Below, piece after piece: positions 1,895-17,419 of a stretch of 64,000 nt of DNA (its first letter is position 1; every line of letters starts with the position of its first letter). The notes under the pieces are model-generated. The model made no database searches, was not told the origin of the DNA, and saw nothing but the letters and a program-made list of their open reading frames with translations. The translations under genes and the position numbers were made by a program. This stretch comes from Escherichia phage AV124: the sequence record OR352954. One strand, written 5' to 3'.

Positions 1895-2930
1895 ACCAAT
1901 TAAATACCCAAGCACCGCACAGTTCCGTCAGGTTATCCGCACCATGCATGATAAACTGACGTTCGACGGTCTTGATGAAGAAGGCAATATCAAGCGTAAG
2001 GTTTTGCCACCGGACGCATACTTGATCCCGTACATTGGTACGGTTAAGCTCCACGGCACAAATGGTAGCGTGGTATTCCACTCTGAGGATGAAGTTGTCT
2101 TCCAGTCCAAAGAGCGTGTCGTTACTGTAGGTGACGATAACAATGGCTTCGCGGCTTTCATGTCTCGAAAAGACACCTCAGAGCTGCTTTCCCAGGTTAA
2201 ATACCTGTGTGAAGTCAATGAAGTTGAGTTCCAGTTCCCGGTTGAAATTGCTGGTGAATGGGCTGGTCGCGGCATTCAGAAAGGTGTTGCCATCACTGAA
2301 GTAGAGCCATTCTTTGCTATCTTCCGTGTGGCTGTAGGCCGGGATGAGGCGACGGATACCCTCAACTGGCTACCACCAACGTTCCAGTTTGGAATGGGAT
2401 TGCCGGATGCTCGTATCTACAGTATCCTTGACTTCGGTTACTGGATGGCTAATATCCCATTCAATGAGCCAGAACTTGTCCAGAATGACTTGGCAGAACT
2501 GACTCGTGAAGTGGAAAACAAATGCCCGGCAGGTAAGTTCTTTGGCGTAGAAGGTATCGGTGAAGGCATTGTCTGGTCTCCAAAAGATCCTGAGCTTTCT
2601 AAAATCTCTGGTCTGTGGTTTAAAGTCAAGGGTGATAAACATTCTGTATCCAAAGTTAAGACCCTGGCAGCGATCGACCCAGAACGCCTCGCAAGTATGC
2701 GTGAGTTCGTTGAGTACGCTGTGACGGAAGCACGTCTTGAGCAGGGTGTTAGCGAAGTCGGTCTTGACCAGACTAAGATTGGTGAATTCATTGGATGGAT
2801 TAACCGAGACATCAACAAGGAAGAGGGTGATGTTCTGGAAGCCAGCTCCATGACCATGAAAGATGTTGGTAAGTTTATCAGCAACAAAGCTCGTGCATGG
2901 TACATGACTCGTCTGAGTGAGGAGGGCTAA
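1887..2930 (+). CDS. ATP-dependent RNA ligase, Rnl2-like
   Basis: Nucleotidyltransferase motif I 'VKLHGTN' (cf. T4 Rnl2 KIHGTN), 'EGIVWSP' and 'FKVKG' downstream motifs; N-terminus 'KPIKYPS'; TTG start after GGGGG SD. Confidence 0.7.
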   Translation: MTKPIKYPSTAQFRQVIRTMHDKLTFDGLDEEGNIKRKVLPPDAYLIPYIGTVKLHGTNGSVVFHSEDEVVFQSKERVVTVGDDNNGFAAFMSRKDTSELLSQVKYLCEVNEVEFQFPVEIAGEWAGRGIQKGVAITEVEPFFAIFRVAVGRDEATDTLNWLPPTFQFGMGLPDARIYSILDFGYWMANIPFNEPELVQNDLAELTREVENKCPAGKFFGVEGIGEGIVWSPKDPELSKISGLWFKVKGDKHSVSKVKTLAAIDPERLASMREFVEYAVTEARLEQGVSEVGLDQTKIGEFIGWINRDINKEEGDVLEASSMTMKDVGKFISNKARAWYMTRLSEEG

Positions 2931-3112
2931 TGGCCCTCATTGTAGCCACAACGCGGTCTGTTGAAAAAAGACCTGGACATTCTTTCACCGAGTGTGATAC
3001 CTTGATTTTCGAAGATGAAGAACAGGGAAAAAAGTTTGTTAAAGATAACAAACAGTTTGTCTATAATGTCCAAAAAGCGAGGGTCATTAAAAATGGTGAG
3101 ACCAGAACCTAA
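2930..3112 (+). CDS. hypothetical protein
   Basis: ORF track, 60 aa, ATG overlaps ligase stop. Confidence 0.25.
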   Translation: MALIVATTRSVEKRPGHSFTECDTLIFEDEEQGKKFVKDNKQFVYNVQKARVIKNGETRT

Positions 3113-3278
3113 GTTTAAAGTCGGGCAGACAGTCAAAGATACCTGGAGCGGCAAGGTTGGCCCTATTTCCACCATGTACTTTTCAGAAGGAGACCAGTAC
3201 AACAAGGCAGAATGGGCATATTCTATAGACCATATCGGGTGGTTATTCCATCCAGAGTCTGACTTGGAGTCGGTGTAA
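3093..3278 (+). CDS. hypothetical protein
   Basis: ATG at 3093 in frame of track ORF 3015..3278. Confidence 0.25.
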   Translation: MVRPEPKFKVGQTVKDTWSGKVGPISTMYFSEGDQYNKAEWAYSIDHIGWLFHPESDLESV

Positions 3279-3697
3279 TGGGTCTTCGTGAATACTTAGC
3301 AGTCAAATTAAAACATGCAAAGGGGCAATCTATGGTTAAAGTGAATGGTAATACCATCACGATCAACGGGAATACCGTCGTTAATGGTGACATCATTGGT
3401 GGAGACTTGAGTATTTCTGCAAATGGGGATAAAATCCTCATCAACGGAAAAGAGGTCTATACCACTTCTGATAAAAACATTACCGTAGTCATCCACGGAA
3501 ATACAGGAAGCATAAACACCACATCTGGTGGTGTGAAGGTGTATGGCACAGCAGGTAATGTTAAGACTGTTTCTGGTGATGTCCGTATCGAAACAGGGTC
3601 ACTTGCAGATGTGACTACCGTCTCAGGAGATGTTATAGCAGAAACCATTGAAGGTAATGTGAAAACAGTTTCAGGAGATGTTTCTCACCGTCGTTGA
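3278..3697 (+). CDS. beta-solenoid repeat protein (DUF4097/bactofilin-like repeats)
   Basis: Tandem degenerate repeats 'VKTVSGDV' / 'GNTITINGNTVVNGD'; alternative start ATG 3332 with AAGGGG SD. Confidence 0.4.
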   Translation: MGLREYLAVKLKHAKGQSMVKVNGNTITINGNTVVNGDIIGGDLSISANGDKILINGKEVYTTSDKNITVVIHGNTGSINTTSGGVKVYGTAGNVKTVSGDVRIETGSLADVTTVSGDVIAETIEGNVKTVSGDVSHRR

Positions 3698-3739
3698 TAT
3701 ACAGCCCCATTATGGGGCTTTTTAATTTGGAGTGTAAAT

Positions 3740-4439: not shown

Positions 4440-6431
4440 ATGATAATCGAGCGTAATGAGAAGAAGGTAGAAGTTAGTACCAACGTCAAACGCTATCAAG
4501 CTGGTATCGCGATCAATGCTGAAACTTTCAGTATCTTGATCGATGGTATTTATGAGGACAAGATCCTTGCTGCCTGTCGTGAACCCCTGTTCAATGCGGT
4601 AGATGCACACACAGAAGCCGGATGCCGGGACAAACCGATTATCATCCACTCCCCAACGGACTTGGAACCGTGGTATTCTGTCAAGGATGGTGGTATTGGG
4701 ATGGACTTTGACATGGTTACCCAGACCTTCATGATGCTGGGATCGTCCACTAAACGTGAATCCAACGATCTGATCGGTGCGAAAGGTATTGGTTCCAAGG
4801 CCCCGTTCACCGTTACGGACATGTTCAGTGTCATCTCTATCAAAGATGGTACTAAAACTGTGTACTCTGTTCATAAAGACCAAGGTATTCCTGAGGTTGT
4901 TCCTCTTCACGAGTCTAAAACCATAGAAGAAAATGGTGTTGAAATCAAATTCAACGTTGATCCGACAGAGACTGAGAAATACCGCCGTGCAATTATTAGT
5001 TGCCTGCGTTATGCTAAGTTCCCTTACGAGATCAATGACCCGTTTGTGACTTCATCTATTCGAGACCGTACCTACCCGGTGCAGTATACGTTCAAAGATG
5101 AAGAATCTGGTTGGATGCTGGAAATGTATTCGTCGGTATCTAACAACGCCGATAGCGTTGTGGTTATGGGACAACAGCCATACAAGTCAAAGTTTCTGAG
5201 CAATAACCCTGAATGGCCTTTAATGATGGTTTCCATTCCGATCGGGGATTGTGACGTAAACCCAGGACGTGAATGGACTATCGAGGGTAAGAATGACCGT
5301 GGATTCGAAGAGCGTCTTAAGGCATTTGTCCAGACTGCCCTTGATCGTCGTGGTGAAGAAATCTATCATGAACTCCGTAAGCTTTCAAATCTGGCTGATG
5401 TATTAGCTTATATGAAGCGGGTAGGTGGTTGGTTTGCCACTAAATATGGTGCAAAGTACATCGCAGAACTCTTCGCAGAGCACACTAACTCTTTGAATAT
5501 TAAAGAGTGCGTGACTTATAATGGTCATGGTGAAAAGCGGAGGATGGATAAGACATACTCTTACACAGACATGATGAACGGCTTCCACCTTGTCTACAAC
5601 GATATTAATAAACTTGTTCGTAGCCGTTGTAATCAGTTATTTGATGTAACAGGCAAGGCCGTCTATCTGACGGACAATCTTGGTGTGGCACAAATGTGTG
5701 ATAATCCATTCTTTGCGGGAATGGTCCATAAGCTGTCGGATTTGGAAAAGCGTCCAGCATCGAAATCGGATAAAAAGTATGGCGGATATAGCCTGTATGA
5801 ACCAGGGCATCCAGTATGGATCATTGAGCAGAGTGGAGCTATTAGGAAAACACGTATCTCCCGTGCGGAATTTGATGATATCAAATATGCCATGGTCTAT
5901 TCTGGTGGTCAGGCACGAGGGACTTGTGACCTTGGGTCTACGGCGTACCTTTCTAACCGTCATCAACCGGAGACCTTCTTGTCAGATCTTGGTATTGATG
6001 ATAAATTATACATCGTACCTTTAAACCGAGTGAGTTGGCTGGATGATGATGTTAGGATGATTACACAGGACGACCTTTATAAGGTTGCAAGTTCAAACCT
6101 GTTGGATTATCATCTTAGTCAGTTAACCAGACAGCGTGAGTATCGCTCTCTCTTGGACGACTTAAAGGGAATAGGTGTAGAGGTTGTCAAAGATCCTGAA
6201 TACAAGCAAAAGGTTAATATGGCTAACACTCTTTACAATATTAAAGGTTATTATAGTGCAGAAAGAACTGCGAAGAGAATCATCAATGGACGTATTCGTG
6301 TTGGGAAAAGTCTGATTAACAAGGTAAAAGAGCGTTACCCGTTGCTGAAACACGTCCCGATGCAACATTTTAACTCACCAGAGGTGGTTGAGTACCGTAA
6401 ATTTATTGATAGCAAAGGAGAAAATAAATGA
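4440..6431 (+). CDS. rIIA: rIIA-like protein (GHKL ATPase N-terminal domain)
   Basis: GHKL-type boxes 'FNAVDAH' and 'GIGMD...GAKGIGSKAPF'; 663 aa; immediately upstream of rIIB-like gene with ATGA overlap. Confidence 0.65.
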   Translation: MIIERNEKKVEVSTNVKRYQAGIAINAETFSILIDGIYEDKILAACREPLFNAVDAHTEAGCRDKPIIIHSPTDLEPWYSVKDGGIGMDFDMVTQTFMMLGSSTKRESNDLIGAKGIGSKAPFTVTDMFSVISIKDGTKTVYSVHKDQGIPEVVPLHESKTIEENGVEIKFNVDPTETEKYRRAIISCLRYAKFPYEINDPFVTSSIRDRTYPVQYTFKDEESGWMLEMYSSVSNNADSVVVMGQQPYKSKFLSNNPEWPLMMVSIPIGDCDVNPGREWTIEGKNDRGFEERLKAFVQTALDRRGEEIYHELRKLSNLADVLAYMKRVGGWFATKYGAKYIAELFAEHTNSLNIKECVTYNGHGEKRRMDKTYSYTDMMNGFHLVYNDINKLVRSRCNQLFDVTGKAVYLTDNLGVAQMCDNPFFAGMVHKLSDLEKRPASKSDKKYGGYSLYEPGHPVWIIEQSGAIRKTRISRAEFDDIKYAMVYSGGQARGTCDLGSTAYLSNRHQPETFLSDLGIDDKLYIVPLNRVSWLDDDVRMITQDDLYKVASSNLLDYHLSQLTRQREYRSLLDDLKGIGVEVVKDPEYKQKVNMANTLYNIKGYYSAERTAKRIINGRIRVGKSLINKVKERYPLLKHVPMQHFNSPEVVEYRKFIDSKGENK

Positions 6432-7663
6432 GCAATCTTTTTAAATCCCGTGCAGATGCTCGTGTTTGTGCTGCAAGTCGTGGTATGAAAGTTGTGGACC
6501 GTGGTGTATCTCCGGCGGTCCTGGCAGAGGGGCGTTGGATGGTTGTCCCCAAAGACAGTATTGGTGCTTCCCCGGAAAAGACGATTTCCTTCGATATGGA
6601 AACTTACCCTGCGCCAACTGCTTCTATGTTCTTTGCGAGTCGGGGAGAAGCCCGAGCATTCTCTAAGACTGTACAGAATGCGAAGATTATCGATCATGCA
6701 AAGACAACAGCAGGACATGACAAAGAGGAGGGGGTTGTCAAGGACCTTGGCAAGCGTGGTAAGCGCTGGGAAGTGGTGTTCGTAGTTTCTGATGTAGAAG
6801 TGAGCATTACTGTTCCTCAGCTTCCAGAACCTACACCTGTGCCTATTAAGATTTCGGTTGTTGATGACACGAAAGCTGATCCCATTGTCATCATGACACC
6901 AGGCAACGTTTCCATCACACTTCCCGATGGAACTATTCATACTCTGGGCAGTAACAGCGAAATCTTTAACGACGTTGGTATGTTACTGTTAAACAACAAG
7001 ATCGACGAAGCCGTAGCTCTTATTGAGGCGGGAATCGCTGCAAAAGCTGAGGTGGCAATCGATCTTGGACCGGATATGAAGCTACTCGACGGTGTTCTAT
7101 ACTGGCACGGCATCAAACAAGAAAGCGGTATTGCTCGCCGTATTGTTTCGGATATCGAGACCGGGAAGTTCGATAACCGTTATGTTGAGTTCATGCGTAA
7201 ACTGATGCTCAACCCTTCTTACAAATCGGTTGAAATGCTGTACGACTTCCTGGAGCATAACAAGTTTGAGATCCTGGAGAATGGCAACATCTTGGCCTAC
7301 AAGGGGCTTAAACGCACTGAGAATGGTCCTCGTGACTGGTTCACAGGCTTGGTCCCTAACTGGGCTAACACCACCGTCACGATGCCAAGAAACATGGTTG
7401 AAGATGACCCAACCAAAGCTTGTAGTCAAGGGCTGCACATCGCTTCCAAGGAATATGCCCGCGATTATGGCAATGTGGTTGAGGTTTCTGTTGACCCGGC
7501 AGACATTGTTAGCGTACCATATAACTACAATAACAAGAAATGCCGATGCTGCCGCTATGAAGTATTGACAGGAAAAGAAAAGCCAGCAGGTGCTCCTGAT
7601 GTTATTGTTGTGGGTGTAAGGGGTGCTATCCTGGACGAAATTTATCTCGATAAGGAGGATTAA
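6428..7663 (+). CDS. rIIB: rIIB-like protein
   Basis: Position directly after rIIA with start/stop overlap; C-terminal 'CSQGLHIASKEYARDYG...VDPADIVSVPYNYN' resembles rIIB family as I recall it. Confidence 0.55.
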   Translation: MSNLFKSRADARVCAASRGMKVVDRGVSPAVLAEGRWMVVPKDSIGASPEKTISFDMETYPAPTASMFFASRGEARAFSKTVQNAKIIDHAKTTAGHDKEEGVVKDLGKRGKRWEVVFVVSDVEVSITVPQLPEPTPVPIKISVVDDTKADPIVIMTPGNVSITLPDGTIHTLGSNSEIFNDVGMLLLNNKIDEAVALIEAGIAAKAEVAIDLGPDMKLLDGVLYWHGIKQESGIARRIVSDIETGKFDNRYVEFMRKLMLNPSYKSVEMLYDFLEHNKFEILENGNILAYKGLKRTENGPRDWFTGLVPNWANTTVTMPRNMVEDDPTKACSQGLHIASKEYARDYGNVVEVSVDPADIVSVPYNYNNKKCRCCRYEVLTGKEKPAGAPDVIVVGVRGAILDEIYLDKED

Positions 7664-8970
7664 TGTCTGATTTTGGAGTGGGAACGGAAGAGGCCTTAGG
7701 TGCTATCATTGAAGGCAAAAACGTTTTCATTACGGGGCCGGGGGGCAGTGGCAAGAGCCATCTGATCAAAACAATCCAATCCCTGTATCCAAGTTCAACA
7801 TTAACAGTGGCCCCGACAGGGGTCGCTTCACTTAATGTTGATGGAATGACAACTCATCGAGCTTTCGGGTTATCAATGGGGATAGCCACAGAAGATGATG
7901 GTAAGACAGTAAAAACTAAACCTAAAAAACTTTTAAAAAGCAAATCTCTTGAGCGTATCATTATTGATGAAATATCTATGGTCCGAGCCGACAAATTGTG
8001 GGAAATGGATCAGAAACTGCGTGTTGCGAGAAGGGAGCCTAAGAAAGCTTTCGGCGGTCTTCAGGTCATCATGTTTGGTGATTTCTTTCAGAACCCTCCC
8101 GTTCTGACAGAGTCTGAAGAAAACGCTTACTTTGAACTCCACAGCACAGAATTATCTTGTTTCTCAGACACTTGGGGAGAGATAAGTCCATACCCTGTGC
8201 TTCTTGACAAGATTTATCGTCAAAACAGCGTGCATTTTTCATCGCTATTGAATCATATGAGGAAAGGCGAGCGTATTGATGAAATAGTTAAATTCCTCAA
8301 CAATCAGTGCTATTCAAAGGGTGCAGCACTGAATGCGATTACCCTAACTTCAACTAATGCCGCAGCGGAGCGTATCAACAAAAAGCATTACGATCAGATA
8401 CCGGGTGAAGAGGTTATTTACAAAGCCTCCAAAACAGGAGATTTTGCCCAGCGTCCAGTTGCTGAGAGTCTACACCTCAAGGTAGGGACTCGTGTCATGA
8501 TCACCGTTAATGATCAGAATCCAGATGAAGACGGTCCTAAATTTGTCAACGGAACGAGGGGTATTATCAAGGCTCTCGGAAAATTTTCGGTAGATGTTGA
8601 GCTGGAAAATGGTAAGATCGTAGAGATCGAAAAGAATGTGTGGGAGAATGTAGAATACTTCCCAAGAAAGGTTATCAAGAATGGTAAGACTGAAGAGGAA
8701 TTGGAAAAGATTGTTGTTGGAACATACACAAACTTGCCCATTCGCCTTGGTTATGCAGTGACCATTCACAAAGCTCAAGGCTTGACTTTGCCAGAGGTTA
8801 ATATAGACTTTGGTTATGGAGCTTTTGCTCCTGGGATGGCCTATGTTGCCTTTAGCAGGGCCACTTCTACAAAAGGTTTAAGATTGTTGCGTCCGGTTAA
8901 AGAACGTGATATTATCGTAGACCAAAGAATTGTTAAATTCTACAAAGACACATTCCCAGGAAAATTTTAG
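7663..8970 (+). CDS. SF1B DNA helicase, Dda/RecD-like
   Basis: Walker A 'GPGGSGKS', 'IIIDEISM', 'VTIHKAQG', 'AYVAFSRA' motifs in Dda/RecD order. Confidence 0.75.
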   Translation: MSDFGVGTEEALGAIIEGKNVFITGPGGSGKSHLIKTIQSLYPSSTLTVAPTGVASLNVDGMTTHRAFGLSMGIATEDDGKTVKTKPKKLLKSKSLERIIIDEISMVRADKLWEMDQKLRVARREPKKAFGGLQVIMFGDFFQNPPVLTESEENAYFELHSTELSCFSDTWGEISPYPVLLDKIYRQNSVHFSSLLNHMRKGERIDEIVKFLNNQCYSKGAALNAITLTSTNAAAERINKKHYDQIPGEEVIYKASKTGDFAQRPVAESLHLKVGTRVMITVNDQNPDEDGPKFVNGTRGIIKALGKFSVDVELENGKIVEIEKNVWENVEYFPRKVIKNGKTEEELEKIVVGTYTNLPIRLGYAVTIHKAQGLTLPEVNIDFGYGAFAPGMAYVAFSRATSTKGLRLLRPVKERDIIVDQRIVKFYKDTFPGKF

Positions 8971-9438: not shown

Positions 9439-9610
9439 AGATTTTACCGACTTGAGTAAGGTAACAACAGAAAAGCTAATGAAACTCCGTGATATCGCTC
9501 AAGATTATCACGATGAGATGCAGCAAGCTGAACTGGAAGCGTGGGAAAGACTCCAAGATATAATTCATGAAATTGTCAAGAGGGCGAAGAATGTTCAAAC
9601 GTCTAATTAA
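9428..9610 (+). CDS. hypothetical protein
   Basis: ATG 9428 (MQVEDF...) in track ORF frame; coiled-coil-like. Confidence 0.3.
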   Translation: MQVEDFTDLSKVTTEKLMKLRDIAQDYHDEMQQAELEAWERLQDIIHEIVKRAKNVQTSN

Positions 9611-9905
9611 CTGGCTCTTTGCCAAAGAGGATGACACCACAGAAAATGAAGTTCGGGTATTCGACTTCACAGAGCAAGGGCCTGGTCATGACATCACTAT
9701 GCGAGTAATCAATGATGGTGAATATGCAGAGGCAGTGGTTGCCCTGAAACTTGCGGATCTGCCGCCTGCGGTTGGTGACTTCATTGTCGTAGTTTTAGAT
9801 GGTGTCCACAATACTTTTGTGGTAGAAACAGTGGAAGGCGTGAGCCTGACAGTTACTAAATTGACCCTGACTCGTTATGAAGGTGCAGAAGATGAAACAT
9901 CGTGA
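9591..9905 (+). CDS. hypothetical protein
   Basis: ATG 9591 inside track ORF 9567..9905. Confidence 0.3.
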   Translation: MFKRLINWLFAKEDDTTENEVRVFDFTEQGPGHDITMRVINDGEYAEAVVALKLADLPPAVGDFIVVVLDGVHNTFVVETVEGVSLTVTKLTLTRYEGAEDETS

Positions 9906-10607: not shown

Positions 10608-10884
10608 AGCCGCACTTCCTGTAGAGATCGAATTCAGTTATGACCACCCTACTGCTGGTGTCGTCACCGTCGAAGCACTTTATTCTGTGATGGAAGGCGA
10701 CCGTAACAGTCGTGAAAGCGATGTAGATTACAACGGTTTCCAGGATCTGGAGTATTATGCTGTATTCTCTGGAGATAAACAGATCTACGTTGACATTCCA
10801 GATGATGTCCTATACCATCATTTACGCGAGTATATCCGCAATCTTGAAATTGTAGGTTGCTTCCAGGAAGAGGAGGATTTTTAA
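10600..10884 (+). CDS. hypothetical protein
   Basis: ORF track. Confidence 0.35.
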   Translation: MSKAALPVEIEFSYDHPTAGVVTVEALYSVMEGDRNSRESDVDYNGFQDLEYYAVFSGDKQIYVDIPDDVLYHHLREYIRNLEIVGCFQEEEDF

Positions 10885-11102
10885 TGAAACACGAAGTTAA
10901 AGTCGTTGAATTCGAATTCGGTAAACACAGAGGTCCAGACTATGTGGCTAAAGTGTTGGCAGAACATCTTGATGAAGGATATACTATCGTAGGGCAATCT
11001 GAAAGTGCTAGATATCTGACCTACACTCTAGTTAAAATTATCCCAATTTCCATGACGGGTACGGTAACAAATGCCGATCACCAAGGGGTCAGTTTCCACT
11101 AA
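10884..11102 (+). CDS. hypothetical protein
   Basis: ATG 10884 (MKHEVKV...) within track ORF 10857..11102. Confidence 0.3.
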   Translation: MKHEVKVVEFEFGKHRGPDYVAKVLAEHLDEGYTIVGQSESARYLTYTLVKIIPISMTGTVTNADHQGVSFH

Positions 11103-11112
11103 GGGAGGCCGT

Positions 11113-11805
11113 TTGAAGAAGAAAGTGATCATTCTTTATGATTACACTTCGGTCATGGCGCGTCCTTGGTTAGAGGCTGGCTATGAAGTTTGGACTTTTG
11201 ATGGTCAACATTCACCAGGAGTCACCCGCGAGGGTGACCTTGTTAAAGTCGGGATGTGGTTCTTCCACGACAAGACCGTTCAACAAGCTCAAGAGATCAA
11301 AGAAATGGTTGGTGACAATGTTCACATCGTCTTTGGTTTCCCGGAATGTACTCACCTGACCAATGCGGGTTCACGTCATTGGGCTAAGAAAAGAGCAGCA
11401 AACCCTAACTTCCAGAAGGAAGCAATGGAACTTTGCCTATTGGTAGAGAAGGTTGGAGATTTATATAATGTTCCGTGGGCCTTTGAAAACCCTGTCGGTG
11501 TTCTTTCTTCAATGTATCGAAAACCTGATTACATGTTTGATCCTAAGGATTACGGCGGGTATCTCCCAGCCAATGATATACACCCACTATATCCGCACGT
11601 ATACCCTCCTCAGGACGCGTATAACAAGAAGACGTGTATTTGGATGGGTAATGGCGCAAAACAGCCTGACAAGCTTCCTGTGAAGGAATTGTACAAGGAC
11701 AATCCGGGCTGGAAGAAGTGTGGTGGCAAATCCACCAAGACTAAAAATATTCGTAGTTGTACACCTCGCGGTTTTGCGGAGGCGTTTTACCAGAAAAATA
11801 AATGA
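11113..11805 (+). CDS. compact C5-cytosine methyltransferase-fold protein (no obvious target-recognition domain)
   Basis: 'FGFPECTHLTNAG' (cf. motif IV GGPPCQ..S.AG), 'ENPVG' (motif VI ENV), C-terminal 'TPRGFAEAF'; TTG start 11113 after AAGGGAGG. Confidence 0.4.
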   Translation: MKKKVIILYDYTSVMARPWLEAGYEVWTFDGQHSPGVTREGDLVKVGMWFFHDKTVQQAQEIKEMVGDNVHIVFGFPECTHLTNAGSRHWAKKRAANPNFQKEAMELCLLVEKVGDLYNVPWAFENPVGVLSSMYRKPDYMFDPKDYGGYLPANDIHPLYPHVYPPQDAYNKKTCIWMGNGAKQPDKLPVKELYKDNPGWKKCGGKSTKTKNIRSCTPRGFAEAFYQKNK

Positions 11806-13877
11806 GAGGGATAATGGGAAATGGACCGGATTGGGCGGCGTATCGCAAAGGCGGCAATGAAAACCCAAGAGCAGGTTTTGGAAGTAATCGCGGAGGCAAG
11901 TTGAGTTATAGTAACAATCGAGTAGAAGAGACCCTGGAATCAGTGCTGTCTGGCACCCGCATCATGGCTGTTCCCGAAATGAGTCTCTCTCTTGAAGCAG
12001 CACAGTATTTTAAGATCCGTTCTGCGGTATCCCCGGCGGATGGTATCACCCCGGTAGCAACATACTTGCCATATTATGATAAGTATGGGAAACTGACAGG
12101 ATTCAAGAAACGTGACTGGACGCTACAAAAGGAGAAGACGGGACACTTTTCAACTGTTGGCGCTGTGAAGGCATCATCTCAGTTCTTCGGGCAGCATGAA
12201 GCCTCTATGGGTGTTGGTCGTAAACAGATCAATATCGTAGAAGGTGAAGGTGACGTATGCGCAGCATGGCAGGCAGCGTATGAGATGGTCAAGGCTATGT
12301 CTACCAGCCCAAAAGCCAGTAAAGGCGTTAAGGACTGGGCCGATAGCATCCTAAAAGGTATCCGTCATATCCAGAACGACGAAGACATTGGCGGTCTTCC
12401 GACACTACCTTATGTCGGATTAAACTGTGGTACTGCAAACGCTGTTGATACTTTCGCAAACAACGAAAAGTTCATTCGCAGTTATGAGAAGGTAGTCTTA
12501 GGTTTTGATAACGATGAAGCAACAGCGTTAGAAAAAGAAAAGAAAATAAAGAAAGGTAAAGAAGCAACCGACGATGTAGCCAGCTTCCTGCTGTCAGAAA
12601 ACATTTACGTTGTGCGATATCCCAACGAGCGTAATGACCCGGATGGCTTTAAAGACATTCGTGACATGTTTGATGCTGGTAAGATACGTGAACTTTACGC
12701 AATGTTCACCAAAGCAGACGATCGCTATGTTCCTGATAAATTGATCGGTCTTAAGGATATCACCATTGAAAACCTTCGTAAGAAGAAAAAAGATGGTGTT
12801 CCATTACCGGGTATGCCGGGGCTTTACAACCTTACCAGAGGCCCTCGTACTGGTGAGCTTTGGACATTGACCGGGCCGTCTGGTGGTGGTAAGTCTACAA
12901 TCTCTCGTAAGATTGAATACGCAATCATTGATTATCTTCGTGATATGTCAATTCCCCGCCTCGATGGCTGGACCGAGAGTGAGAAAGTAGCTATCATCCG
13001 GCTGGAAGAGGATGAAGAAGAGTCTGTAAACAGCTTGTATGCTGAAGAGCTGAAGGTGGACCCTAAGGCATTTGTTGCTGACCCGGAGCAGTTCTTAACC
13101 GAAGAGCAACACCTTGAAATTCACCAACGCTGGATTAGGGAAGATAAGATTAAGATCTTCGATCACTTTGGTTCTATCCCGACAGACCAGCTTATTCAGA
13201 AACTTAAGCAGATGGTGTTCCTTGATGGTTGTAAATGGATCATCCTCGATCACCTGTCGATGGTAATCTCTGGTCTTAAGTCCGACAACGAACGTCGAGA
13301 CCTTGATAACATCATGACCGAGCTGGCGGCTTTCTGTAAGAAGTACGATGTTTTCATCTTATCAATCAGTCACATGAAGCGTAAAGAACTTCAGCTTCCG
13401 AAAGATAAAGATGGGAATCTATTACCGTTCTGGTATCCGGTCCGTAAAGAAGACCTGCGCGGTTCTGCGGCCCTTGAACAACTCTCATGGGTGGTTCTGG
13501 GTGTTGAACCAGAAGAGCTTCCTGACCGCTCCCGTGGACGTGTACGTATCGTGGTGCTGAAGAACCGCCCACACAAAAAACTGGGTATCGCTGATACAAT
13601 GGTTATGGATGACAACGGGCAGTTCTCCGATGCTTCCGGCTGGGAATGGGAAGATGGGATGTTCAAGCTTAATGGTGAAGTTATGCTTCGTCCTCAGAGT
13701 CTGATCCATCAACTCTCTCTGGAAACTCCGGTTGGAAAGGTAAATGTTCCGGCACCTGAGTATAAGCCAACCATCGATCTTGATAGGACACCAGTCCCTA
13801 CTCTTGATCCTGACGATGATACGCCTTTCGCCCCGATAGGATTGCAATACGCAAAACATGCAATTTATGTAATTTAA
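11802..13877 (+). CDS. primase-helicase, T7 gp4-like (TOPRIM + DnaB-like helicase)
   Basis: TOPRIM 'NIVEGEGDVCAAW', 'VVLGFDNDEA'; helicase Walker A 'GPSGGGKST', 'IILDHLSM'. Confidence 0.8.
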   Translation: MRGIMGNGPDWAAYRKGGNENPRAGFGSNRGGKLSYSNNRVEETLESVLSGTRIMAVPEMSLSLEAAQYFKIRSAVSPADGITPVATYLPYYDKYGKLTGFKKRDWTLQKEKTGHFSTVGAVKASSQFFGQHEASMGVGRKQINIVEGEGDVCAAWQAAYEMVKAMSTSPKASKGVKDWADSILKGIRHIQNDEDIGGLPTLPYVGLNCGTANAVDTFANNEKFIRSYEKVVLGFDNDEATALEKEKKIKKGKEATDDVASFLLSENIYVVRYPNERNDPDGFKDIRDMFDAGKIRELYAMFTKADDRYVPDKLIGLKDITIENLRKKKKDGVPLPGMPGLYNLTRGPRTGELWTLTGPSGGGKSTISRKIEYAIIDYLRDMSIPRLDGWTESEKVAIIRLEEDEEESVNSLYAEELKVDPKAFVADPEQFLTEEQHLEIHQRWIREDKIKIFDHFGSIPTDQLIQKLKQMVFLDGCKWIILDHLSMVISGLKSDNERRDLDNIMTELAAFCKKYDVFILSISHMKRKELQLPKDKDGNLLPFWYPVRKEDLRGSAALEQLSWVVLGVEPEELPDRSRGRVRIVVLKNRPHKKLGIADTMVMDDNGQFSDASGWEWEDGMFKLNGEVMLRPQSLIHQLSLETPVGKVNVPAPEYKPTIDLDRTPVPTLDPDDDTPFAPIGLQYAKHAIYVI

Positions 13878-13933: not shown

Positions 13934-16306
13934 ATTAAAGGTCTGTTTATACTGGATAACGAGGCCGATGGCCTGTTAGACGAAGTAACTAAGTACCATT
14001 GTACTTTGCTGAAAGAATTCGGAGTCAACAACTGGAACCTGTTTTTAGACCCCGCACACCCTGAATATGAAAGCGCTGTAGCCTTTGCCAGGAGCAAGAA
14101 GGATGCTAATCTTACAATTCGTTCATACGACGAGCTGGAAAGCTTCCTGAAGACTTGTAGAGCCATTGCGTGTCACAACCTGTTTGGTTATGACCTGCGC
14201 CTGTGGAAGAAGTTATCGGGCATTGAATATGATATGTTCAAAGACCCGAAGTGCATGGGGACGATTGGGGATACACAGGTAAATCTCTACGACACCCTCT
14301 CTATGAGCCGTGTGCTTTATCCTGACCGTCCATTACCTAACGGTTGCCCTGACTCTGTTCTTAACCCGGTAACCGGGAAGCGAGACCGTGTAGGTCCTCA
14401 TGGCCTGTTGGCCTGGGGCTACCGCGTAGCAAACAAGAAAGTTCAGATCGATGACTGGCGTAACCAACCCTTGTGGGAATACGTTAATCGTGTCTGGGAA
14501 GACGTTTTAATCAACGAGTTAGTATGGCAATCCCTGATCGATGAATCTACAGGTGCTCGCTGGCCTGATGACAAGCAGTTCATGTACAAAGATAAACCGG
14601 AAGGGATGCGGCAGATCAACTGGAAGAACGCGCTACGCCGCCGTATGTTGACTGATTACCTGATGATTGAGCAAGAAATTCAGGGTGTTCCATTCAATAA
14701 GCATGAAGCTGAAAAGCTGAGAGACCGTATTGATGTAATGATGAAAGAGATTGAGGAAGAAGTAGAACCTCAACTCCCGCTCAAAGAGATGACGAAGTCT
14801 CAACAGCCAAAATTCCCTGCTAATCCTTTTGATGGTGCAGGAAGAATTTCCCATCACGGGTGGAATTGGTTAGAATACAAGCTGGGATATCCAGTTAATC
14901 GTGAAGCGCTGGAATTCAAAGGTCCACCGAAGACGGCGTTTAAAGGTAACGGTGATGTAAGTGCAGCAGGGGAAAGATACTGTATCCAGAATGGTGTTGA
15001 AGACCCGGCAGCGATGCCAGACTTCATTAGAAGCCAGATAAAGAAAGAGAATACCCTTGTCCCATTGCCACCAGACCTAATGGAAAAGGCAATTGCCGAT
15101 CTTCGTGCTGGAAAGATGCCAGACCTGATGGTTCCGATGAAGATCTCGAACCAGGACGACATCAAGAAGTACCTGATCCGCGATGCGGGATGGAAACCAA
15201 CGCTCTGGCGTGTTAAAGATGTGACGAAAGACCAGTTCAAAAAGACCCGCGATGATGCGGAGGTTGATGGTCTGGTGCGTAAGTACATCGAAGAACTTGG
15301 AGAGTCCGAGTATAAATCTCTGATTCTTGAGCACTTAAATAATAGTGACGCAAAGTTCAATATCTCGGAAAACAAGTTCGACCATCGTCATGGTTCTGAT
15401 CGTGTTTACGAGGAGGTCTTCAAGAAGTTCCGACGCAAAGCTCGTCAACTGCCGACTTCACCACAGTTGAAGGATAACTTTGGCAAGCTGTGTCCTAACC
15501 TTGAAGTTATCGATGTTCACTTGGCTAAACAGATTGTTAAGTGGCTGTCATTACGTAACCGTCGTTCTGTTCTCGACCCTATTGACGAGGATAAAAACGA
15601 TACAGGGCTGTTGAATCATCCTCGCCTGGCGATTGATGGAAAACTTCCAGCTCGTTTCTCTGGTATCACTAACACCGGGCGTTGTAAGCACACCATTTGT
15701 GCAAACATGCCTAAGCCAGATCCTAAGGTGTTGTTGGGTAAAGAGATGCGTGGTCTCTGGGGTGTGACCGATGAATATTACCAGGTCGGTATCGATGGTT
15801 CTAACCTCGAAGGTATGATCGCGGCATGGGGTGCATATCAGTTCGATGGTGGTGAATACCTCCGTATCATGGAAAGTGGAGATGCCCACGCACGAAACGC
15901 CGAGGCATACACCAAAGCTTCTGGTACTCTGGTAACGCGTAACGGTGGTAAAGGGGTAACCTACGGCATCATGTATGGTGCTCAGGCAGCTAAGATTGCA
16001 GCAATGCTTCACATTTCCCTTGACAAGGCACAGGCGGTAATCGATGCTTTCTGGGATAGTAACTTTGGTTTGAAAGGTCGTAAGGAATGGCTTGAAAACT
16101 TCTGGGAAGCAACGGGTAAACGTTATATCCCTGGTCTCGATGGTCGTAAGATTTGGACCCGTTCTAAGCACTCTCTTCTGAATGCTTTCCAGCAAAACGG
16201 TGGTGCATCTCTATTCGATCTGGTTGGTATCCTGCTTCACTGGGAACTGATCAAACGTGGCTGGTATGATGATGACGTTCGTCGCCTGATTTACTACCAT
16301 AAATAA
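13934..16306 (+). CDS. DNA polymerase, family A, T7 gene 5-like; N-terminal segment (3'-5' exo + motifs A and B), ends just before motif C
   Basis: Exo I 'FILDNEADGLLDEVTKYHC' (cf. T7 'IVSDIEANALLESVTKFHC'), 'GPHGLLAWGYR', motif A 'GIDGSNLEG', motif B 'KGVTYGIMYGAQ'; no ATG/GTG/TTG between upstream TGA (13919) and Exo I, so start set at ATT 13934 after AGGAGG. Confidence 0.75.
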   Translation: MKGLFILDNEADGLLDEVTKYHCTLLKEFGVNNWNLFLDPAHPEYESAVAFARSKKDANLTIRSYDELESFLKTCRAIACHNLFGYDLRLWKKLSGIEYDMFKDPKCMGTIGDTQVNLYDTLSMSRVLYPDRPLPNGCPDSVLNPVTGKRDRVGPHGLLAWGYRVANKKVQIDDWRNQPLWEYVNRVWEDVLINELVWQSLIDESTGARWPDDKQFMYKDKPEGMRQINWKNALRRRMLTDYLMIEQEIQGVPFNKHEAEKLRDRIDVMMKEIEEEVEPQLPLKEMTKSQQPKFPANPFDGAGRISHHGWNWLEYKLGYPVNREALEFKGPPKTAFKGNGDVSAAGERYCIQNGVEDPAAMPDFIRSQIKKENTLVPLPPDLMEKAIADLRAGKMPDLMVPMKISNQDDIKKYLIRDAGWKPTLWRVKDVTKDQFKKTRDDAEVDGLVRKYIEELGESEYKSLILEHLNNSDAKFNISENKFDHRHGSDRVYEEVFKKFRRKARQLPTSPQLKDNFGKLCPNLEVIDVHLAKQIVKWLSLRNRRSVLDPIDEDKNDTGLLNHPRLAIDGKLPARFSGITNTGRCKHTICANMPKPDPKVLLGKEMRGLWGVTDEYYQVGIDGSNLEGMIAAWGAYQFDGGEYLRIMESGDAHARNAEAYTKASGTLVTRNGGKGVTYGIMYGAQAAKIAAMLHISLDKAQAVIDAFWDSNFGLKGRKEWLENFWEATGKRYIPGLDGRKIWTRSKHSLLNAFQQNGGASLFDLVGILLHWELIKRGWYDDDVRRLIYYHK

Positions 16307-17275
16307 CATTGTGGCTTTGTGAGGTAACTCACATCGAATAACTCCTTTAATTGCTGGGAGGCTAAGGTTGATATTCACTCGATAATAGAGTAAAATACAA
16401 CTATGTTAATCAGCAGCGAAGAGGATCAATGAAAAGTGTAAACTACCACGGATATGTGGTTTACGAAGACGGAACCATTATCGGAAGGCGCGGGAAACCG
16501 ATGCAAAAGGTAGATAATGGGAGGGGCTACCTAATTGTAAGTCTCTACCTTAATAAAAGAACAACGACAAAAGCTGTGCATGTTTTAGTGGCTGAGTGTT
16601 TCGTTCCCAACCCGGATAACCTCCCAGAGGTTGACCACAAGGATGGTGATAAGACCAACAACCACTACACCAACCTCCGCTGGGTAACAAGAGGTAAGAA
16701 CATAGAACATTGCTACACGTTGGAAGGTAGAAGTGCAACAGGTATTGCCAATGCAAACAGTAAGTTGTCAGAGGGAGAAGTGGAGAAAATCTGCTACCTC
16801 TTGCAGGAAGGCTTTAGTCAAGCTGCCATCCGAGACATGGGCTACCCATACGGAACAGTTAGGGCCATCAAGCAGAGACGACAATGGCTGCATATATCAT
16901 CTTCGTATCATTGGTCTTAACGTTCAGAGGCCAGCCGAAAGGCGTAGACGAGCGAGTGCCGTCGAAATGGGGAGCATCCTGAAAAGGATGGTGATATGGT
17001 CCGATCCTACGTGAAAACGTATGGCAACACGTAATGGTGTGGGCGAGATTAACGACCTCGCTAAACTTTTGGATGAATACCAGCTCCAGGTTCCTAAGAA
17101 ATACCTGAAGAAGTGGGAGTTCGACACCCTGGAAGAGGCAACAGCTTTCGTCAAAGAATGGGAAGCAAAAGGCCGGGTATTTGACGGACATGAATGGAGA
17201 AAGGCCGTCAAAGATGACAACGGTGATAAAGTCAAGGATGCGGAAGGCAATACAGTCTACGAAGGTATTTTCGGG
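16301..17275 (+). mobile_element. insertion interrupting the DNA polymerase gene; candidate group I intron carrying an HNH endonuclease ORF (alternative: gene-splitting homing cassette)
   Basis: Polymerase frame stops at 16304-16306 where motif C is expected; conserved C-terminus resumes downstream; possible P1 pairing CCAU(16297-16300)/GUGG(16311-16314); in-frame G-terminated 3' site at 17275. Confidence 0.3.
16429..16920 (+). CDS. HNH homing endonuclease
   Basis: 'VHVLVAECFV...VDHKDGDKTNNHYTNLRWVTRGKN' HNH_3-type motif; C-terminal HTH-like segment. Confidence 0.75.
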   Translation: MKSVNYHGYVVYEDGTIIGRRGKPMQKVDNGRGYLIVSLYLNKRTTTKAVHVLVAECFVPNPDNLPEVDHKDGDKTNNHYTNLRWVTRGKNIEHCYTLEGRSATGIANANSKLSEGEVEKICYLLQEGFSQAAIRDMGYPYGTVRAIKQRRQWLHISSSYHWS

Positions 17276-17419
17276 GACGATGGTAAAATCCACATCCAGT
17301 ATTGCCCTGTTGGTGAAATGGTCGTAAGATGTGTAGAGAAGGCCGCTCGTATCATGGGCAGTCCTGTACATATCACAGGGGCATATCTTACGGGCGCCAA
17401 TTGGGCGCAATGTCATTGA
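17021..17419 (+). CDS. DNA polymerase C-terminal segment (motif C region to C-terminal His)
   Basis: 'IQYCPVGEMVVRCVEKAARIM...ANWAQCH*' matches T7 DNAP C-terminus '...IQVGC..EEIAQVV...NWAICH*'; first ~85 codons lack polymerase similarity. Confidence 0.6.
   Translation: MATRNGVGEINDLAKLLDEYQLQVPKKYLKKWEFDTLEEATAFVKEWEAKGRVFDGHEWRKAVKDDNGDKVKDAEGNTVYEGIFGDDGKIHIQYCPVGEMVVRCVEKAARIMGSPVHITGAYLTGANWAQCH

Follow-up and report, generated by a model that had tools for sequence, protein, structure and literature searches.

A probable orphan C5-cytosine methyltransferase without a target-recognition domain in the replication block of Escherichia phage AV124

The experimentally studied member of the minimal, Dcm-like phage methyltransferases is Dcm of phage K42, a phage that is 95% identical to KarlJaspers of the BASEL collection (bioRxiv 10.1101/2023.08.16.553469, which appears as Cell Rep 2024;43:114857 in PMC12640716). 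All four K42 mutants that escape the defense system retron Ec86 (Eco1) map to a 711-bp ‘dcm’ gene, and its product has been modelled on DNMT3A, with C82, E128, K175, and K176 named as catalytic or substrate residues (bioRxiv 10.1101/2023.08.16.553469). By mass spectrometry coupled to liquid chromatography (LC-MS), wild-type K42 Dcm raises the 5-methylcytosine (5mC) content of the multicopy single-stranded DNA (msDNA) of the retron in vivo and activates the retron, while the C82A/E128A/K175A/K176A mutant does neither (bioRxiv 10.1101/2023.08.16.553469). A homolog of this enzyme is encoded in a 64,000-nucleotide stretch of Escherichia phage AV124 DNA (sequence record OR352954; the whole stretch is referred to as the window), where its gene precedes that of the primase-helicase.

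This gene probably encodes an orphan S-adenosylmethionine (SAM)-dependent DNA C5-cytosine methyltransferase (C5-MTase) that comprises the catalytic large domain only and is co-expressed with replication genes. The assignment is favored because the predicted fold, a profile–profile alignment, and membership in PHROG 757 agree, and because published in vivo evidence of 5mC formation exists for a 43%-identical relative. The formation of 5mC is taken from the literature on the K42 homolog, and the activity, cofactor, and role of the window protein would follow from it by analogy.

Family Membership and Fold

PHROG 757 (‘DNA methyltransferase’) aligns residues 1–230 of the window protein with positions 13–219 of its 247 profile positions (E-value (E) 1.7e-80). 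A protein of Klebsiella phage VLCpiM5b annotated “DNA methyltransferase” shows zero amino-acid differences over the 230 residues. The 711-bp gene bas06_0055 of KarlJaspers encodes a protein that shares 43% identity along its entire length (E 2e-66); K42 Dcm residues C82, E128, K175, and K176 correspond to C79, E125, K172, and K173 of the window protein, all four being conserved.

The family is widespread. By tblastn, 1506 of 50,697 phage records contain a member; among the carriers are Vequintavirinae (rV5 gp226), Dhillonvirus (HK578 gp32), Drexlerviridae (Shfl1p86), Webervirus, Vibrio phages, and Campylobacter phages. Scanned exhaustively with HMMER, 1.8 billion cluster representatives yield 1192 clusters (50% identity) at E<=0.001, and the best 150 representatives listed are mostly 190–260 amino acids (aa) long. 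Longer members (P0208, P0216, P0238, and others) have low-complexity extensions and no Pfam domains that would mark fusion partners. The N-terminal extensions of P0208, P0216, and P0238 span 170–200 aa, are rich in Ala, Pro, Ser, and Glu, and have a eukaryotic- or giant-virus-like appearance; in P0238, the context of the catalytic cysteine is lost (APPGRD).

A profile search against methylase families, the check proposed by the sequence-only reading, is negative with Pfam and NCBIfam, an outcome that this reading would have taken as evidence against a methylase. The window protein matches no Pfam family at E<=10, PF00145 included, and gives no significant methyltransferase match with NCBIfam or phmmer. 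None of the 120 best homologs carries a precomputed Pfam domain. Run against the PDB with hmmsearch, family profiles made from 11 or 83 members give nothing significant; the only methyltransferase in the list is DNMT2 (4h0n, E 0.07), with motifs I–IV in register. Across the 83 members, no Pfam family except PF00145 (five members, best E 0.0039, sub-threshold) is matched more than once. The negative outcome is overturned by the PHROG, profile–profile, and fold searches, and the methods based on sequence hidden Markov models (HMMs) are too insensitive for this family. PHROG 757 is among the commonest methyltransferase-like genes of enterobacterial phages, with ~1500 genomes, and goes undetected by Pfam and NCBIfam.

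The AlphaFold2 model computed from the 83-sequence alignment has a mean predicted local distance difference test score (pLDDT) of 96.8 and a predicted template modelling score (pTM) of 0.92. In a Foldseek search against the PDB, the 49 best matches are catalytic domains of DNMT3A, DNMT3B, and DNMT3C (E 8e-7 to 7e-5, template modelling score (TM) ~0.44), followed by DNMT1. As modelled, the window protein has the C5-MTase fold. The proposal of the sequence-only reading, a compact C5-MTase fold and possibly a minimal DNA cytosine methylase, is therefore supported by the fold search, the profile–profile alignment, PHROG 757, and the K42 relative.

Catalytic Residues and the Missing Recognition Domain

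The register of the motifs was established against eight canonical C5-MTases, namely M.HhaI (its sequence checked to be identical to PDB 10mh), E. coli Dcm, and six phage enzymes. Aligned by hhalign, the family profile matches the eight-sequence profile locally over 116 columns (E 1e-4, probability 57%), and motifs I, II, IV, and VI line up; against M.HhaI alone, the register is right and significance is absent. The features located in this way are collected in the table.

Features of the methyltransferase gene and the adjoining primase-helicase gene (window positions)
Feature	Position	Strand	Remarks
Coding sequence of the 230-aa minimal C5-methyltransferase	11113..11805	+	TTG start, TGA stop 11803-11805
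Shine-Dalgarno GGGAGG	11103..11108	+	4 nt before TTG 11113; read from sequence
Motif I equivalent L8-Y9-D10-Y11-T12-S13	11134..11151	+	pairs with M.HhaI L17-F18-A19-G20-L21-G22
Asp30, end of strand 2	11200..11202	+	pairs with M.HhaI Glu40 (motif II, ribose-binding acid); nearly invariant in family
Motif IV catalytic loop GFPECTHLTNAG, aa 75-86	11335..11370	+	Cys79 at 11347-11349; pairs with M.HhaI Cys81 and K42 Dcm Cys82
Motif VI ENPVG, aa 125-129	11485..11499	+	Glu125 pairs with M.HhaI Glu119 and K42 Dcm Glu128; invariant in 83 members
Family-specific conserved insertion YLPANDIHPLYPHVYPPQDAYN, aa 150-171	11560..11625	+	inside motif VIII; from alignments
Lys172-Lys173 and strand 7 (TCIWMG)	11626..11649	+	K173 on M.HhaI Arg165; K172/K173 equal K42 Dcm K175/K176
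Residual segment at canonical target-recognition domain position, aa 180-212	11650..11748	+	mostly coil; begins with ‘GF.MP’ element
C-terminal motif IRSCTPRGFAEAF, aa 213-225	11749..11787	+	R214, P218, G220, A224 nearly invariant
Primase-helicase gene (PHROG 239), downstream	11814..13877	+	alternative ATG 11802 yields ATGA overlap

The PC-type catalytic motif that had been noticed from the sequence is present in the translation, as are ENPVG and TPRGFAEAF. Motif IV reads F76-P77-E78-C79, the residue preceding the cysteine being P, E, V, or D in the family. Residues E125-N126-P127 fall on M.HhaI E119-N120-V121 in the hhalign alignment. Among 83 diverse members, D30, C79, E125, N126, and K172 are invariant or nearly so.

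Motif I had been called divergent, and so it is: YDYTS stands in place of FxGxG, retaining the aromatic residue and replacing both glycines. Across ~250 family sequences, the motif follows (F/Y)-D-x-(T/S)-G. Residues seen at the first canonical glycine position include Y, F, G, R, H, L, and V, and the second glycine is a serine in the window protein and its nearest relatives. In an 11-sequence alignment, the position after strand 3 (motif III) is Asp or Asn in the rV5, HK578, and Shfl1 homologs and Gly47 in the window protein. Because motif I varies throughout the family while the catalytic and ribose-binding positions stay (nearly) invariant, its divergence appears to be largely a family trait and not evidence of inactivation.

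The same residues bear on the idea that the protein is a methyltransferase-like binder with weak or no catalytic activity, e.g., a DNMT3L-like partner, a replisome-associated DNA-binding factor, or a decoy for host defense. Such a role would accord with the loss of both motif I glycines and the motif III acid in the window clade, with the failure of canonical methyltransferase HMMs to recognize the protein, and with the position of the gene next to that of the primase-helicase. It is quite unlikely, given the conservation of Cys79, Glu125, Asn126, Asp30, and Lys172 and a ratio of nonsynonymous to synonymous substitution rates (dN/dS) of ~0.06; moreover, the first glycine position of motif I (residue 11) is variable family-wide, even in branches near the active K42 enzyme. 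Dead paralogs such as DNMT3L have lost the catalytic cysteine.

Beyond motif VI, the comparison relies on a forced global alignment. In it, PDYMF/DYGG falls on LDYSF/LDYG, strand 7 on RIYMICF, and ‘GF.MP’ on ‘FQFP’ of M.HhaI. The QxRxR of motif VIII is absent, and LPxxD, a 17-aa insertion, and K172-K173 take its place, K173 falling on R165 in this alignment. A possible stand-in for substrate contacts is the conserved insertion delimited in the table.

The sequence-only reading had also pointed to a very short target-recognition domain (TRD) segment, and the alignment bears this out: the last core strand, strand 7, occupies aa 174–179, 51 residues remain to the C-terminus at aa 230, and ~25 mostly coil residues stand where M.HhaI has ~80. 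The C-terminus carries RSCTPRGFAEAF, within which TPRGFAEAF spans aa 217–225 (11761–11787). The C-terminal motif of the table shows a weak match (E 0.006) to motif IX, RKLHPRECARVM; from its position as the terminal helix, it could just as well have the role of motif X. It is the sole recognizable C-terminal motif, where canonical enzymes have two, motif IX (RxxTPRExARLQGFP) and motif X (GNxV). In essence, the protein therefore consists of the large catalytic domain of C5-MTases and lacks the small one. Supply of a TRD in trans by a partner gene was considered and rejected, as an all-against-all BLASTP comparison of neighboring open reading frames (ORFs) at seven loci revealed nothing conserved beyond Vequintavirinae synteny.

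Substrate, Cofactor, and Proposed Reaction

In the proposed reaction, the target cytosine would be flipped into the active site pocket, where the Cys79 thiolate would attack C6, Glu125 would protonate N3, and Lys172 and Lys173 would contact the base. The methyl group would then move from SAM to C5, and β-elimination would free 5-methylcytosine. Because a TRD is absent, contacts to DNA would have to come from the catalytic loop, the 22-residue insertion (aa 150–171), and possibly oligomerization as in DNMT3A and DNMT3B. For the same reason, the sequence specificity is expected to be short or relaxed. The probable benefit to the phage would be the shielding of its DNA from cytosine-sensitive restriction. 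The cost, in relatives, is that the methyltransferase triggers the defense of retron Ec86 (Eco1) (bioRxiv 10.1101/2023.08.16.553469).

The missing TRD also admits a different substrate. The enzyme may be an active C5-pyrimidine methyltransferase acting on something other than duplex DNA, such as transfer RNA or another RNA (like Dnmt2), single-stranded or replicating DNA, or free deoxycytidine monophosphate or triphosphate (dCMP/dCTP) prior to incorporation. Besides the DNMT2 entry in the PDB list described above, the paper on phage CB7 gives Dnmt2 (3QV2) as the best HHpred match of its homolog. The loops of the recognition region are highly conserved across hosts, unlike sequence-specific TRDs. 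In addition, the msDNA methylated through K42 Dcm is single-stranded with a hairpin and is made in vivo, which is compatible with methylation of the nucleotide pool or of single-stranded DNA. However, DNA enzymes (DNMT3A/B, CmoX, 3g7u, and M.HhaI), and not Dnmt2, give the closest structural matches. Known cases of nucleotide-level C5 methylation in phages are carried out by thymidylate-synthase homologs, and bulk incorporation of 5mC would be expected to be toxic in MG1655 through McrBC. K42 Dcm is harmless in MG1655 without the retron, and the defense is lost when the CCTGG site of the msDNA is mutated (bioRxiv 10.1101/2023.08.16.553469). A substrate other than duplex DNA is therefore considered unlikely, and an enzyme that modifies free nucleotides, raised as an alternative by the sequence-only reading, is not supported.

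The choice of cofactor raises a further alternative, in which C5-MTase chemistry is combined with a cofactor other than SAM, e.g., carboxy-SAM (Cx-SAM) from the host, to add another C5 group such as carboxymethyl. The precedent is CmoX (PDB 8yf3), a DNA cytosine C5-carboxymethyltransferase of 333–372 aa that has a TRD, an SPPC motif, and a Cx-SAM-binding Arg350, recognizes GC, and is linked to cmoA and cmoY (PMC12783734). The hallmark SPPC is absent from the window protein, which has FPEC instead, and neither a CmoA homolog nor a ligase was found in the 64-kb window. CmoX enzymes are further marked by an arginine at the position of M.HhaI Asn304 (PMC12783734); Arg214 is at most a putative counterpart, as the only profile alignment puts it on Arg272 of motif IX. 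K42 Dcm, with the same arginine, yielded 5mC in E. coli. DNMT3A and DNMT3B have an arginine in motif X, yet they use SAM. Transfer of a group other than methyl is accordingly judged highly unlikely.

Several points weigh against a SAM-dependent DNA C5-MTase. Both motif I glycines are replaced, a glutamate stands next to the catalytic cysteine in place of proline, and Gly47 replaces the Asp or Asn of motif III, so that cofactor binding could differ from that of the K42 enzyme (FDGSG, FPPC), as judged from the residues. The formation of 5mC is demonstrated only for K42 Dcm, which lies outside the clade of the window protein, and LC-MS on msDNA made in vivo does not tell whether methylation occurs on the DNA or in the nucleotide pool. 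Furthermore, the CCWGG specificity of K42 Dcm is assumed from that of E. coli Dcm and is backed only by msDNA mutants (bioRxiv 10.1101/2023.08.16.553469).

The composition of the window itself gives no guidance on specificity. Relative to the base-composition (zero-order) expectation over window positions 1–64000, the ratios are 1.20 for CCWGG, 0.61 for GCGC, 0.80 for CG, and 1.06 for GATC; the CCWGG, GCGC, and CG values are uninformative as to the methyltransferase. No methylome or restriction data on cytosine methylation in Mydovirus, rV5, or CB7 were found in the literature.

A more far-reaching version of the SAM-dependent DNA C5-MTase assignment can be formulated. Here, a C5-MTase reduced to its large domain would read DNA without a TRD, by means of the motif VIII insertion or oligomerization, with little or no specificity or with a preference for single-stranded or replicating DNA, and the FPEC/YDYT(S/G) clade, in which the first motif I glycine is missing (and in the window protein the second as well), might bind its cofactor differently or take one other than SAM, resulting in an undescribed DNA modification in Mydovirus. 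This extension seems improbable.

Gene, Neighborhood, and Comparison with Known Systems

The 3.2 kb around the methyltransferase gene are 96–97% identical to those of ~30 Mydovirus phages (Vequintavirinae) of Klebsiella, e.g., KpS8, VLCpiM5b, and BIS47. GenBank records of these relatives annotate a 244-aa form starting at ATG 11071, and the corresponding ORF (11071..11805, + strand) is present in the window. The TTG at 11113 is the more credible start, because a Shine-Dalgarno sequence lies past the stop codon of the upstream gene, the N-termini of homologs (MKK...) correspond to it, and TTG is kept in relatives. The upstream TAA (11100–11102) stands directly before GGGAGG, three orthologs retain the TTG codon, and the end of the upstream gene lies 10 nt before it in the Salmonella relative. 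The start at 11113 given by the sequence-only reading is borne out by the spacing of GGGAGG, the MKK of homologs, and the retained TTG. The dN/dS is 0.063 against the 81%-identical ortholog of a Salmonella phage and 0.072 against KpS8. With these values of 0.06–0.07 and a family of 1192 clusters at 50% identity, the gene is genuine and under strong purifying selection.

The gene lies, as had been proposed, inside a replication module. The co-directional early/replication block comprises rIIA/rIIB, a Dda-like helicase (7663–8970), six small ORFs, the methyltransferase, the primase-helicase, and a family A DNA polymerase (from 14006). No terminator-like site was found between the methyltransferase and primase-helicase genes, and the two are likely co-transcribed. 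Translational coupling through ATGA had been suggested as well. The overlap exists, ATG 11802 sharing its last two letters with the stop at 11803–11805, and the packing is tight and co-directional; however, relatives annotate the primase-helicase start at ATG 11814, 9 nt further on and preceded by GAGAGGGA, and a small ORF separates the two genes in the Salmonella relative, so that strict coupling is not established.

Helicase or primase genes adjoin the methyltransferase gene in the window, rV5, and HK578. When window positions 11113–13877 are compared with positions 4971–7803 of the syntenic rV5 locus (L002), the methyltransferase is 38% identical to gp226 and the primase-helicase 54% identical to its counterpart. 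rV5 gp226 is closer to T1-like and HK578 proteins (53–55%), and the nearer relatives of the window protein are a Vibrio-phage homolog (50%) and metagenome proteins, marine ones among them (~60–65%). This pattern of sequence identities suggests that, at a fixed locus, one family allele took the place of another. Homologs of CmoA, Dcm, or HhaI were not found in the 64-kb window.

Further observations concern the neighboring genes. In rV5, positions 2385–3710 of the same locus encode gp230, a 441-aa adenine-methyltransferase-like protein located between the helicase and gp226; the equivalent interval of the window holds only small ORFs of unknown function. Two of the small ORFs in the window, at 9567–9905 (112 aa) and 10857–11102 (81 aa), match the ‘DNA ligase’ PHROGs phrog_10936 and phrog_10384 and bear the same label in GenBank relatives. 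Both are much too small to be ligases, so the label is probably noise carried over from one annotation to the next. The DNA polymerase gene of the window is split into a 766-aa N-terminal ORF (14006–16306), an HNH endonuclease ORF (16429–16920; phrog_59, E 8e-40), and a 132-aa ORF (17021–17419) that matches the C-terminal end of the phage DNA polymerase profile phrog_8888 (positions 169–295 of 295). In KpS8, the polymerase is a single 880-aa coding sequence followed by an HNH gene, and the VLCpiM5b annotation divides it into two pieces. The interruption at 14006–17419 looks like a homing-endonuclease insertion or an intron.

As an annotation result, the locus is mainly housekeeping: it holds a genuine, conserved cytosine methyltransferase homolog of a family that is already known, public records naming the gene as a methylase and a relative having been studied experimentally. 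The family nevertheless merits more attention than routine annotation implies, as it is devoid of the domain that sets specificity and one member triggers retron Ec86 (Eco1). Knowledge of its methylation targets would help to predict the sensitivity of phages to restriction systems, modification-dependent nucleases, and retrons, which is relevant to candidates for Klebsiella phage therapy such as the Mydovirus group. The questions at the family level are how an enzyme without a TRD chooses its target and whether the FPEC/YDYT(S/G) clade behaves as the tested FDGSG/FPPC enzyme does.

Among the described systems, the canonical type II C5-MTases (PF00145: M.HhaI, E. coli Dcm, and M.HaeIII) share with the window protein motifs I, II, IV, VI, VII, and VIII and ‘FxFP’ in the same order and register, as well as the catalytic Cys and Glu. 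Unlike them, it has no TRD and no motif I glycines, and it carries an insertion and Lys-Lys in place of QxRxR. The catalytic domains of DNMT3A and DNMT3B are 14–18% identical to the window protein, with a TM of ~0.44. DNMT3 enzymes, of ~280 aa, have a short TRD loop, motifs IX and X, and DNMT3L-assisted tetramers with regulatory domains. A Dnmt2-type enzyme would show its closest similarity to Dnmt2, including the TRD of the latter, and this is not found. Relative to CmoX, the window protein has FPEC for SPPC.

The BASEL name ‘Dcm-like C5 cytosine methyltransferase’ covers two architectures, namely the 329-aa HhaI-like protein of Escherichia phage EmilieFrey (L015, 320–1309), which is 30% identical to M.HhaI, and the minimal 236-aa family of KarlJaspers. 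The minimal ‘Dcm-like’ phage enzymes of PHROG 757 align with the window protein over the full length, at 43% identity for KarlJaspers Dcm and 36–40% for rV5, HK578, and Shfl1. K42/KarlJaspers Dcm, rV5 gp226, HK578 gp32, and Shfl1p86 are likewise ~230 aa long, lack a TRD, and have the catalytic Cys, the Glu, and Lys-Lys. The tested K42 enzyme combines FDGSG with FPPC, whereas the window clade combines YDYTS with FPEC.
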